A stretch of 63,890 nt of DNA, the filler included, from an uncultured Methanosarcinales archaeon (lineage in GTDB: Archaea > Nanobdellota > Nanobdellia > Woesearchaeales > BS150m-G63), in NCBI GenBank assembly GCA_964630685.1. It is 5 parts of 5 records of this genome, joined end to end, with 100 filler letters (N's around TTAATTAATTAA, not from the genome) between each part and the next. Parts side by side here need not be neighbours in the genome. Positions count along the whole stretch, not along the records: positions 19,876 to 33,216 come from CAZVVW010000017.1; 4 more parts are not named here. The stretch is one strand, 5' to 3'. Shown piece by piece: positions 19,984 to 22,686 of the stretch; the stretch's first letter is position 1; each line of letters starts with the position of its first letter. The position numbers are program-made.

Positions 19984-22686
19984 CACGAAAGTGTGATAAG
20001 GGAATCCTAAGTGCTAATGTTTTGCATTGGCTTTTTTCTAGGGTAAATACCTAGGAGAATAAGTGGTGGGTAAGACTGGTGCCAGCCGCCGCGGTAATAC
20101 CAGCGCCACGAGTGGGGATCATAATTATTGGGCCTAAAGCGTCCGTAGCTGGTCTGACAAATCTTTTGTGAAATCGTGAAGCTTAACTTCACGGCGTGCA
20201 GAAGACACTATTAGACTAGGAACCGGGAGAAGTCAAAGGAATTTTGGGGGGAGCGGTAAAATGCTATAATCCCTGGAAGACCACCAATAGCGAAGGCATT
20301 TGACTAGAACGGATTCGACAGTGAGGGACGAAAGCCAGGGGAGCGAACCGGATTAGATACAACTTTTGCAAAAAGTCGTAGCAAATACCTGCAATATGGT
20401 ATTTCGCTACACTCAATACCATGGAACGAGACTTATTATGTTCGTTAATACTACTACGATAAGTTTTTTATCTGTGAATTTTATGTGTAAAAGTTGCTAA
20501 TTACCCGAGTAGTCCTGGCCGTAAACGCTGCGAGCTAGGTGTTGCATATTCTTCGGGAATATGCAGTATCGAAGCGAAGGTGATAAGCTCGCCGCCTGGG
20601 AAGTATAGTCGCAAGGCCGAAACTTAAAGGAATTGGCGGGGGAGCACTACAAGGGGTGCGGCGTGCGGTTCAATCTAATTCAACGCAGAGAATCTCACCA
20701 GGAACGACGGCAGAATGAAAGTCAGGCTGAAGACCTTACTTGACAAGCCGAGAGGTGGTGCATGGCCGCCGTCAGCTCGTGCCGCGAGGTGTCCTCTTAA
20801 GTGAGGTAACGAGCGAGACCTGCACTCACAATTGCTATCAACTCTTTTTGGAGGATTGGGCACATTGTGAGGACTGCCTTGGAAACAAGGAGGAAGGTGC
20901 AGGCTACGGTAGGTCTGTATGCCCCGAATTCCCTGGGCTACACGCGCGCAACAATGGTAGGGACAACGGGTCACAACTCCGAAAGGAGAAGTTAAGCCTC
21001 TAAACCCTATCCTAGTACAGATCGAGGGCTGTAACTCGCTCTCGTAACGATGGAATCCCTAGTAATCGGACGTCAACATCGTCCGGTGAATATGTCCCTG
21101 TTCCTTGCACACACCGCCCGTCAAATCACCCGAGCAGGGTTTGGGTGAGGCACAACTTTTTGGTTATGTCGAACCTAAGCTCAGTGAGGTGGGTTAAGTC
21201 GTCACAAGGTAACCGTAGGGGAACCTGCGGTTGGATCACCTCCTTTTTTCTTTTAATAAACTGAAAGAAAATTTTACAGAAGAATTTATTTTTCTGGTGA
21301 TTGCTTTAATTTATTAAAGAATATCACACTTGTCGAATCTAACAAACAACACTTTTTTTATTCATTTTTATTGGGCTAGAAATATATTCACGGGCCCGTA
21401 GCTCAGCGGTAGAGCATCGCCCTTGCAAGGCGGAGGCCTCGGGTTCAAATCCCGACGGGTCCATTTCTACCCATTCATAATCATTTAATATATGATACAT
21501 ATCCTGTTGTAACTCAATAGGATATTTAGGTTAGTTAATTTATATTGACTTTGCTTAATTATATTAACCATGATACCATACATAAGAAGATTATACCTAC
21601 GCTATTAGGTGGATGACTAGGCTCTAGACGCCGATGAAGGACGTGACAAGCTACGTTATGCTCCGGCGAGTAGCATGTATACTTTGAACCGGAGATTTCT
21701 GAATGCGACTTCGCATTAATACCGAAAGGTAAGGGAACGCAGGGAATTGAAACATCTTAGTACCTGCAGGAAAAGAAATCAATAGAGATGCTGTAAGTAA
21801 GAGCGACTGAAAGCAGCATAGGGCAAACCGAATCCCTTGTAGTAATATAAGGGAAATGTGGTGTTATAGGACTGCTTTTTCGTCCTAACTTGAAGACTCA
21901 AATTCTTCTGGAAAGAAGAACCATAGAGGGTGATAGTCCCGTAGAGGAATTCAAGAGGATTTAGCAGTATCCTGAGTATTGTTTCTTGGATATGAAGCAA
22001 GAATTTGGGAGGCATCAACTTCCAACCCTAAATACGTATAGAGTCCGATAGCGCATTAGTACCGTGAGGGAAAGTTGAAAAGAACCCTTGACGGGGTGTT
22101 AAAAGAACCTGAAACCTAATAGTTATAGTGGGGTACGGCTCTTCGGAGTTGTACCGTGCGTTTTGAATAACGTGCCAGGGAGTGTATTTATGTGGCAAGG
22201 ATAATTCCTCGAAGGAAGCATCCTAAGGGAAACCAACAAGCCCGCAGTTTTACGAGGGGCGAGGTGTGAAAGCGCCTGTAGTCACATGGATACGACCCGA
22301 AGCCGGTCGATCTAATCCTGGGTAAGGTGAAGCAGAGGTAATACTTTGTGGAGGCCTGAAGAGGTGCTACGAGCAAGTGTTCTTCTAACCTGGGATTAGG
22401 GGTGAAAAGCCAATCGAGACCGGTGATAGCTGGTTCCTGCCAAAGTTGGCCGTAGTCAAGTCTCAGTGGAGATAGCTATAATTGTAGAGCTACGGATTAG
22501 GGATTTTGGGGCTTAACCGCCTCGGTCTCTTCTCCAACTCCGAATGTTTTAGCGTCGTAGAAGCTGGGAAACGGGGGCGCGGGGTAAGCTTGCGTCCCGA
22601 GAGGGGAACAACCCAGACCAAAGTTAAGGTCCCAAAATACTGGTTAAGTGTTAAAGGGCGAAAGGTGTTTGCAGCCTAAGACAGTG

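Follow-up and report, generated by a model that had tools for sequence, protein, structure and literature searches.

The window analyzed here, a 63,890-nucleotide stretch of DNA from an uncultured Methanosarcinales archaeon (Woesearchaeales; genome G000), contains a 16S rRNA gene at 19876-21244 (this and all other window features given below lie on the + strand), which matches the archaeal SSU model of Rfam, RF01959, with 1164.7 bits over model positions 250-1478. Contig C17 starts at window position 19876, and the first 250 model positions are found on a second contig, G000:C7:43943-44323, which overlaps C17:1-174 and shares 98.95% identity with the 5' portion of the 16S gene of the same-genus genome G018; the split over two overlapping contigs reported in a preliminary description therefore holds. 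A search of the G000 genome for a second 16S copy found none. The RF01959 alignment sets 145 letters against one model position, between ...GGAUUAGAUA and CCGAGUAG, and the bacterial SSU model breaks at the same place. This alignment, combined with the register of the junction motif described below, places a 144-nt insert at 20359-20502, with exon 1 ending in ...GGATTAGAT at 20358 and exon 2 starting with ACCCGAG at 20503. The motif GGATTAGATACCC occupies positions 785-797 of E. coli rrsH, which puts the insert between E. coli 793 and 794, where it had previously been numbered by eye. The 16S exons of G018 are 98% identical to those of G000, and G018 reads CGGATTAGAT|ACCCGAGT at this point (L086), with 0 letters between. 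The G000 sequence without the insert, GGATTAGAT|ACCCGAG, equals that of G018, the Rfam consensus, and E. coli 785-797, in agreement with the earlier statements that the same-genus sister lacks the insert and that its removal restores the universal loop. Contigs from two DNA runs span the insert (X1 record 1, 20160-20615, 3 other letters; X2 record 11, 20315-20613, 0 other letters), and these may stem from the sample of origin. The presence of the insert in the 16S rRNA gene of this archaeon is confirmed.

The intron junctions form, as read from the sequence, a canonical bulge-helix-bulge (BHB, hBHBh') motif. The outer helix h pairs CGG at 20349-20351 (E. coli 784-786) with CCG at 20505-20507 (E. 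coli 796-798), and these pairs are the native helix-24 pairs of the Rfam structure line; A787 (20352) stands unpaired opposite C795 (20504). The central 4-bp helix H joins TTAG of the exon (20353-20356, E. coli 788-791) to CTAA of the intron (20497-20500). It is flanked on opposite strands by two 3-nt bulges, the 5' bulge ATA (20357-20359), with an inferred cut at 20358/20359 that leaves bases 1-2 exonic and base 3 intronic, and the 3' bulge TTA (20501-20503), with an inferred cut at 20502/20503 that leaves bases 1-2 intronic and base 3 as exon A794. The inner helix h' (P1) is made of CAACTTTTGC (20360-20369) and GTAAAAGTTG (20487-20496), which form 10 pairs, one of them G.U. This is the archaeal BHB geometry, with a 4-bp helix, two opposed bulges, and flanking helices h and h', and a cut after the second base of each bulge restores a functional exon sequence; the hBHBh' parse put forward earlier is reproduced in every element. 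The outer helix has 3 pairs only, next to the A.C mismatch, and in an unconstrained minimum-free-energy fold H is extended by A-U and G.U pairs and the 3' bulge is not formed (-53.2 kcal/mol, vs. -49.8 kcal/mol for the BHB conformer, which is thus 3.4 kcal/mol less stable). A 5-bp register of H would pair A787 with the first base of the 3' bulge; with T at this base in only 32/61 introns, the register was rejected.

The comparison set consists of introns at this 16S site in 61 genomes, 61 distinct sequences of 31-205 nt. The partner strand of H is CTAA in 60 and TTAA in the remaining one. The first four pairs of h' are paired in 235/240 cells with 3-6 pair types per position, compared with 23-42% for a shifted-partner control; since the 61 introns share kinship, fewer independent events lie behind these cells than their number suggests. 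The exonic bulge bases, namely two in the 5' bulge and A794 in the 3' bulge, are invariant over all 61 introns. The intronic bulge bases vary: the third base of the 5' bulge is A in 52, T in 5, and C in 4, and the first two bases of the 3' bulge are TT (27), AT (13), CT (10), TG (5), AG (3), or GT (3). The junctions thus combine compensatory helices with exonic bulge bases that are fixed and intronic ones that are free, and the retention of TTAG/CTAA with a covarying h', first noted in 5 relatives, extends to the whole set.

To judge from sequence and predicted structure, the intron is a member of a family of RNAs that lack an ORF and share four covarying helices. The 144-nt intron scores 41.3 bits (E 6.8e-7) against a model built from the G240 intron alone, and its fold is stable (z -3.9). 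Aligned to the model, hairpin P3 spans 20396-20422 (ATGGTAT.../...ATACCAT, followed by a conserved GGAACGA), and hairpin P4 spans 20424-20472, with the loop motif GTTCG...AATACTAC. Changes on both sides are seen at 7/11 pairs of helix 3 (6 sequences) and at 9/11 pairs of helix 4, in an alignment that was seeded with the single-sequence G240 model and then re-aligned and that therefore leans toward structure. RNAalifold, run on a MAFFT alignment, recovered no helices other than h and h', and outside P3 the G240 fold could not be transferred to a MAFFT alignment. Homology among these introns is detected by covariance models only: blastn of the intron alone against 401 genomes gave chance matches (E >= 1e-4), none of them at a 16S gene, and "through" alignments at 71-79% identity proved to be joined exon pieces rather than intron homology. 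A search of Rfam returned no family for the intron. Searches for a group I or group II core, at E <= 0.01 over 19876-21260 and at gathering score over the whole window, gave no match; the sole match overlapping the intron was SSU rRNA, and a self-splicing group I or II intron was rejected. On inspection by eye, a box C/D RNA was dismissed, as RUGAUGA is absent from the G000 intron.

Both enzymes of archaeal splicing are encoded in the host. EndA, the tRNA-splicing endonuclease whose presence had been claimed before, matches PF01974 (2.6e-29) and PF02778 (3.8e-13) and lies at G000:C4:4898-5158; it is a single 178-aa gene with both domains and looks, by this domain makeup, like the homotetramer type. 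The ligase RtcB was found as well, at G000:C1:100845-102143 (2.2e-164). ARAGORN calls introns in 13/35 tRNA genes. The motif is present, conserved, and covarying, the genes for both enzymes are encoded, the site is intact in a sister 16S with 98% identity, and DNA contigs contain the intron; we consider it highly probable that the 144 nt at 20359-20502 interrupt the "790" loop of helix 24, at E. coli 793/794, as an archaeal BHB intron. In the pre-rRNA, the terminal CUAA of the intron would pair with UUAG of the loop and the intron ends with each other (h', 10 bp), while the helix-24 stem would serve as the outer helix. Two 3-nt bulges, 4 bp apart, would thereby be offered to EndA, which would cut behind the second base of each bulge, and RtcB would join the exons to GGAUUAGAU|ACCCGAG and would probably circularize the intron. 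Cleavage, ligation, and circularization of the G000 intron are thus predicted.

The RNA data, which are assembled contigs rather than reads, bear on whether the halves are rejoined. RNA contig X4 record 28 aligns to 20502-20613, and the letters before that part are AACCGGATTAGA (= 20346-20357), which gives an exon-exon junction; with 12 letters on one side only, it also fits the intron-less G018, whose exon 2 is identical, and its source organism is not assignable, so the caution voiced earlier about this contig stands. The three junction contigs of X3 come from another organism, as they contain a letter absent from G000. Exon-1 contigs with all seven G000-specific letters occur in both runs (X3 record 17, depth 87.7; X4 record 25, depth 28.9). 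In X3 and X4 the bins at 20369-20501 have depth 0, and the RNA contig table contains no splice joint across the intron; missing cover does not count as evidence, and these bins were not used as support. The insert might alternatively be excised without rejoining, which would leave the 16S rRNA in two pieces, broken within the 790 loop, as bacterial intervening sequences do. The RNA contigs are compatible with this, with exon-1 ends at 20350-20360, exon-2 starts at 20502, and no joint assigned to G000; however, such breaks are expected from assembly, because the stretch is common to many organisms (depth >10,000 at 20331-20368). Moreover, a joined form is present in run X4, RtcB is encoded in G000, a break at U793/A794 would split a 9-nt universally conserved loop, and BHB rRNA introns are described as ligated following excision (PMC4496867). 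We therefore regard fragmentation as improbable.

Still less probable is retention of the insert in the mature rRNA as a helix-24 expansion segment. A stable fold and covarying helices are possible in such segments too, but retention would disrupt the invariant 790 loop, the conservation is centered on the exact BHB geometry and cut positions, the sister with 98% identical exons does without the insert, and the interiors found at this same point belong to three unrelated sequence types. That the insert is an artefact of assembly or binning (from a chimeric contig or a foreign 16S) has a negligible chance of being correct: fragmentation and mis-binning of rRNA contigs are common in metagenome bins, this 16S is split over two contigs, and the contigs of many relatives stop just 3' of the intron, but independent contigs of two DNA runs span both junctions, the insert recurs at the identical point in 60 other genomes, and mis-binning would put the intron under the wrong host without making it any less real.

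Among evaluable Woesearchaeales relatives, 60/196 (31%) carry an intron at the 793/794 site, so that the previous figure of about a third is upheld on a larger sample, and the site is also occupied in other archaeal lineages. Introns at this BHB site come in several kinds, endonuclease-bearing ones plus the three ORF-less types. The long forms (589-745 nt), which occur in other genomes, encode LAGLIDADG_3 (PF14528) in 5/5 cases tested (E 3.8e-18 to 1.2e-10), which suggests that the 793 site is a homing site of LAGLIDADG-bearing introns. The longest sense ORF of the 144-nt G000 intron has 44 aa, and the intron contains no ORF of homing-endonuclease size. Closely related 16S genes differ in the presence and type of intron, and the introns at this site appear to be gained, lost, and swapped fast.

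The family reaches beyond the 16S gene. A family model (R2) matches 11 introns at 16S-793 and also places in G100 (8), G248 (2 beyond 16S), G115, and G141. When the matches at 8 places were removed in silico, ARAGORN called a tRNA at 5/8, vs. 0/8 before removal. Homologues of the intron family thus lie in tRNA T-loops of relatives, and the family is dispersed over different host genes and positions; a search of G000 found no copy other than the one in 16S. The G000 copy appears to be an ORF-less member of a small RNA family that also resides in tRNA loops of relatives. We tentatively propose, as a possibility that we hold at somewhat below even chances, that the G000 intron is a copy of an undescribed family of ORF-less four-helix mobile mini-introns that move among the hairpin loops of different structured RNAs (tRNA T-loop 59/60, a tRNA D-loop, and the 16S 790 loop), re-tailoring at each site only the few bases that pair with the host loop. 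They would coexist at the rRNA site with LAGLIDADG homing endonucleases, perhaps mobilized by them in trans, and 16S genes that are nearly identical would quickly come to differ as introns are gained, lost, and replaced.

The intron splits what we take to be the binding site of 785F- and 806R-type primers. With ~31% of evaluable Woesearchaeales 16S genes carrying an intron there, amplicon surveys that use such primers should therefore miss these lineages, and 16S callers may truncate or mis-align the genes. An essential loop of 16S would have to be repaired by tRNA-splicing enzymes before the subunit works, and 16S maturation in these reduced genomes would therefore depend on EndA and RtcB. 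The combination at one site of endonuclease-bearing introns and three ORF-less types, one of them with tRNA-loop relatives, offers a tractable system for the study of intron spread.

What is new about this intron is its site and its host group, whereas its kind is a known one. No paper that we found names an archaeal intron at 793/794, though a mention in supplements is possible; the Nawrocki 2018 supplement consists of model files only. That introns are frequent in DPANN 16S genes is stated only in general terms (PMC7507113, PMC7906910). The closest counterparts are the 16S BHB introns of Thermoproteales, Desulfurococcales, and Aigarchaeota (Jay and Inskeep 2015, PMC4496867), which share the BHB junctions, EndA and RtcB as the presumed machinery, a location in highly conserved stretches targeted by universal primers, and the occurrence at one locus of LAGLIDADG-bearing and short ORF-less forms, with a patchy distribution that does not track host phylogeny. 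By contrast, the 13 loci given for them (374, 548, 722, 781, 803, 901, 908, 919, 978, 1093, 1205, 1213, and 1391) do not include 793, and the hosts are thermophilic Crenarchaeota, whereas the 793 site is occupied in Woesearchaeales with small genomes and in further lineages of their class; the G000 copy differs further in being a structured RNA of 144 nt that has homologues within tRNA genes. In Micrarchaeota (ARMAN-2, ARM-1; Sakai et al. 2022, PMC8784108), insertions likewise lie in the 16S gene of a DPANN host but at another site, E. coli 1093, are 522 nt long with an ORF, and are of uncertain splicing per the authors. The insertion sequences that CPR bacteria carry in their rRNA genes (Tsurumaki et al. 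2024, PMC11270868) resemble the 793 introns in that ORF-less and LAGLIDADG forms share sites and are scattered over host phylogeny and in that they occupy conserved sites, where they interfere with primers; they differ in occurring in bacteria without EndA and in being group I/II introns or of unknown type. The nuclear group I intron site S788 of eukaryotic SSU rDNA (PMC8395846) falls in the same SSU rRNA loop, five bases away, but concerns a self-splicing ribozyme of eukaryotes with no BHB. Finally, the transposition of tRNA introns in Thermoproteales (Fujishima et al. 2010, as cited in PMC4090602) similarly involves very similar BHB introns at different positions and in different host genes; that case was described there among tRNA genes, whereas members of the 793 family occur both in tRNA loops and in the 790 loop of 16S.

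Aligning window positions 19876-21244 to the archaeal small-subunit rRNA model RF01959 (1164.7 bits) placed 145 window letters opposite a single model position, between GGAUUAGAUA and CCGAGUAG, and the bacterial small-subunit model breaks at the same point. The upstream exon ends in CCGGATTAGAT, the intron runs from A CAACTTTTGC to GTAAAAGTTG CTAA TT, and the downstream exon resumes with ACCCGAG. In the numbering of E. coli rrsH, where the motif GGATTAGATACCC spans 785-797, the 144-nt intron (20359-20502) separates U793 from A794 within the "790" loop of helix 24. Based on the RF01959 alignment and the rrsH numbering, the 16S insert that the preliminary description put between about 793 and 794 is real. 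The 5′ end of the gene is on a second contig of this genome, G000 (C7:43943-44323, overlapping C17:1-174), and a search of the genome found no second 16S copy. The 23S rRNA (21586-24489) covers model positions 1-2987 in 2904 nt and therefore has no insert comparable to that of the 16S. The bacterial-model match spans 19599-21246, and its part crossing the contig joint at 19776-19875 into the previous contig is spurious; a ttaattaattaa spacer set in runs of N links the contigs there.

The canonical bulge-helix-bulge (BHB) described earlier is present in the sequence. Its outer helix h consists of the native helix-24 pairs C20349-G20507, G20350-C20506 and G20351-C20505, followed by an unpaired A20352 opposite C20504; the central helix H pairs TTAG (20353-20356) with CTAA (20497-20500), flanked by the 5′ bulge ATA (20357-20359) and the 3′ bulge TTA (20501-20503), and the inner helix h′ joins CAACTTTTGC to GTAAAAGTTG in 10 pairs. 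Without constraints, the fold (-53.2 kcal/mol, z -3.9) lengthens H by two pairs and does not form the 3′ bulge, so the BHB conformer (-49.8 kcal/mol) is 3.4 kcal/mol costlier. The splicing enzyme cuts behind the second base of each BHB bulge; therefore, the exons would join as GGATTAGAT to ACCCGAG. Assembled in 35 contigs (936,502 bases, 96.6% complete), the genome encodes the expected machinery: the single EndA gene, already pointed out, has a product of 178 aa, counted from an internal Met, that matches both the N-terminal (PF02778, 3.8e-13) and catalytic (PF01974, 2.6e-29) domains, and RtcB is encoded as well (2.2e-164). ARAGORN finds introns in 13 of its 35 tRNA genes. For DPANN, PMC5829648 reports single-gene (alpha4-type) EndAs that have an additional loop.

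To characterize the motif comparatively, we used 61 distinct introns from 61 genomes, which are kin to each other, so that the cells counted are not independent events. The partner strand of H reads CTAA in 60 introns, the remaining one having TTAA (a G.U pair), and h′ pairs 1-4 are standard in 60/60, 60/60, 59/60 and 56/60 cells (one 31-nt intron was too short and was excluded), with 3-6 pair types each; the kept TTAG/CTAA and covarying h′ noted before in a few relatives thus hold across the larger set. Shifting the h′ partner by 1-3 positions lowers pairing to 23-42%. The intronic bulge bases vary, at the third base of the 5′ bulge (A 52, T 5, C 4) and at the first two of the 3′ bulge (TT 27, AT 13, CT 10, TG 5, AG 3, GT 3), and the exonic bulge bases are invariant in all 61. 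Selection on the BHB and on the inferred cut points would be expected to leave such a pattern. Judged from sequence, the insert is well supported as an intron predicted to be spliced by EndA.

All four runs searched consist of contigs. Those of DNA runs X1 and X2 bridge the intron, and RNA runs X3 and X4 contain perfect exon-1 contigs (20160-20350 and 20160-20330) spanning all seven positions that tell G000 from its same-genus relative G018, together with exon-2 contigs that start at 20502 in both. In one X4 contig, AACCGGATTAGA immediately precedes 20502, as in the spliced junction; the earlier caveat stands, since intron-less G018 would read the same letters. Three X3 junction contigs read AGCGACCCGG..., unlike G000, and no splice joint across the intron is listed for contigs of the four runs. 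RNA contig cover over the intron is zero, which we do not count as support for splicing.

Of 401 sampled genomes, 211, among them G000 and the unpublished G132, G183 and G315, gave a match to a 541-nt query spanning the site. An intact GGATTAGATACCC was seen in 136 of the 401 (unpublished G206 among them; reversed-pattern control, four genomes) and is absent from G000. This leaves 76 relatives with a 16S match and without the intact motif, of which we examined 73, leaving out three unpublished ones; 60 carry an insert of 31-205 nt exactly between CGGATTAGAT and ACCCGAGT, and 13 were excluded, either because contig ends cut the site (G038, G007, G026, G284, G156) or because an exon-2 match is missing (G118, G171, G216, G242, G253, G341, G371, G376). 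Carriers thus make up 60 of 196 evaluable relatives (31%), in agreement with the preliminary estimate of about a third of Woesearchaeales, and the site is uninterrupted in G018 (locus L086), also as first described.

Of the 401 genomes in the phylum sample, 49 (unpublished G592 included; reversed control, 1) contain the 3′ junction pattern CTAANNACCCNNGTAGTC; five of the 49 are among the 123 genomes from other orders of the class, all five with GGATTAGAT upstream and inserts of 45, 46, 109, 659 and 745 nt. A longer junction pattern, with one genome per species, gave at least 119 stretches. Among the matches listed, 80 loci were fetched, many from the same genomes as the order sample, so that the two samples are not independent; the exon-1 motif lies 23-745 nt upstream in 78 (L234 being doubtful; L212 and L269 were excluded), and h′ has at least three contiguous pairs in 74 of these. 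Depositor titles among the matches listed include Woese-, Pace-, Parv-, Aenigmat- and Altiarchaeota, as well as Hermodarchaeum (32 nt), Borrarchaeum (31 nt, h′ of one pair only) and a Nitrososphaerota MAG (30 nt). Introns of Woesearchaeales types also appear under titles such as "Methanosarcinales" and "Aminicenantes bacterium", which are probably mislabels or mis-binning.

Five of five long 793/794 introns tested (659, 745, 589, 635 and 739 nt) contain a LAGLIDADG_3 domain (E 3.8e-18 to 1.2e-10). The ORFs, 118-236 aa long, lie inside BHB introns of other lineages, at L105:679-1295 (-), L106:794-1501 (+), L197:1030-1383 (-), L247:1030-1623 (-) and L259:300-1001 (+); the shortest, of 118 aa, is possibly truncated.

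Sorted by eye, the short introns comprise three types of sequence. R1, a covariance model built from the G240 intron alone, matches the G000 intron over its full length (41.3 bits, E 6.8e-7, 284 kb searched). In a six-sequence alignment, which was fitted to the structure and is hence biased towards it, 91.1% of cells pair vs 37-45% when slid, and 30 of 45 pairs show both-side changes; none of 500 shuffles gives values this high. The fold has four helices, P1 (= h′), P2, P3 and P4, with kept loop motifs, and P2 is weak in the G000 copy. A second model, R2, matched 11 16S-793 introns full length (E ≤1e-4), and one further match (E 0.86) is probably chance; in G000, R2 matches the 16S intron only. 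The 5′ strand of h′ (CTTTTG) could pair in two ways (20364-20376 with 20487-20492), with an adjacent AAAAG to form a local hairpin or with the AAAAG at the intron 3′ end to form h′; this three-part layout recurs in L044, L091, L068 and L329 and is kept across the family, tRNA copies included.

Copies of this family also occur outside 16S genes. Across 151 genomes, R2 matched the 16S of G000 and G102 and places elsewhere in G100 (two), G115 and G141, under stricter filters that missed two family members, G020 and G098; in 12 chosen genomes it found eight places in G100, three in G248 (one being its 16S) and none in G018. At the first four non-16S loci, neither the Rfam rRNA and tRNA models nor ARAGORN gave a call. 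Once the element was removed in silico, ARAGORN called a tRNA at 5 of 8 places vs 0 of 8 before. Read by eye, most elements sit in the T-loop at the 59/60 position, for example between ...GGGTTCAAA and AGTCCCTCC... where H is TTCA/TGAA and the bulges are AAC and AGT, and one sits in a D-loop. The copies in tRNA genes are L325:1501-1589 (-), L329:1501-1591 (+), L333, L334, L335 and L331 in G100, L324 (G115:C59:1729-1871), and L330 and L328 in G248, whose 16S intron and one T-loop element are nearly identical over the first 38 bases and differ by compensatory changes in their P3 stems. Three R2-like elements have no readable spliceable context (L332, G100:C75:182-347; L336, G100:C27:3118-3214; L315:980-1103, G141:C35); two adjoin the 5′ end of an opposite-strand tRNA gene, and the third is the G141 element. 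These three suggest that the element acts as a free small repeat too.

To follow turnover, the flanking exons were placed in a FastTree tree of 138 rows, 77 intron-bearing and 61 intron-less, the latter being G018 and 60 of the 136 intact-motif genomes, chosen for long flanks and family overlap (the other 76 were left out). Intron presence requires at least 36 changes, 24 of them forced by starred branches, vs a shuffled mean of 45.3 (4 of 500 shuffles as low as observed), and intron type requires 60 vs 68.4. Sister pairs with strong support are discordant: G000 (type 2) vs G018 (none), with exons 98% identical, G214 (type 2) vs G348 (type 1), G240 (type 2) vs G363 (type 3), and G096 (type 1) vs G187 (type 3). 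The test is built on the 16S itself and is therefore independent of binning. An identical 107-nt intron in L035 (G042) and L054 (G072), genomes placed in different families, suggests either that the intron was transferred recently or that a 16S contig was mis-binned. The G105 bin holds two 16S copies (L038 and L058, on C27 and C28) with type 1 (103 nt) and type 3 (106 nt) introns at the same site. In L048 (G070), L052 (G078), L054 (G072) and L082/L085 (G229), a 198-nt exon-2 query aligns over 231-245 nt or in two pieces, which makes another short insert, downstream of the 790 loop, probable in these genomes.

The interest of this intron is threefold: it is frequent within a primer target, endonuclease-bearing relatives occupy the same 793/794 site, and a structured ORF-less family is common to 16S and tRNA loops. 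Our literature search found no paper naming an archaeal 16S intron at 793/794. The accessible part of Jay & Inskeep (2015, PMC4496867) lists 13 archaeal 16S intron loci, 793 not among them, and that of Sakai (2022, PMC8784108) names Crenarchaeota, Aigarchaeota and Micrarchaeota as the groups in which 16S insertions are known. For DPANN, the text of Nawrocki (2018, PMC6125680), as far as accessible, mentions BHB and group I introns in rRNA genes without sites, and its supplement comprises model files only; PMC7507113 and PMC7906910 remark in general terms that introns are frequent in DPANN 16S genes, and an rRNA intron is nowhere mentioned in the main text of a 2026 preprint that covers 208 complete Nanobdellota genomes. 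Both the 793/794 site and the host group are new for introns of this known kind.
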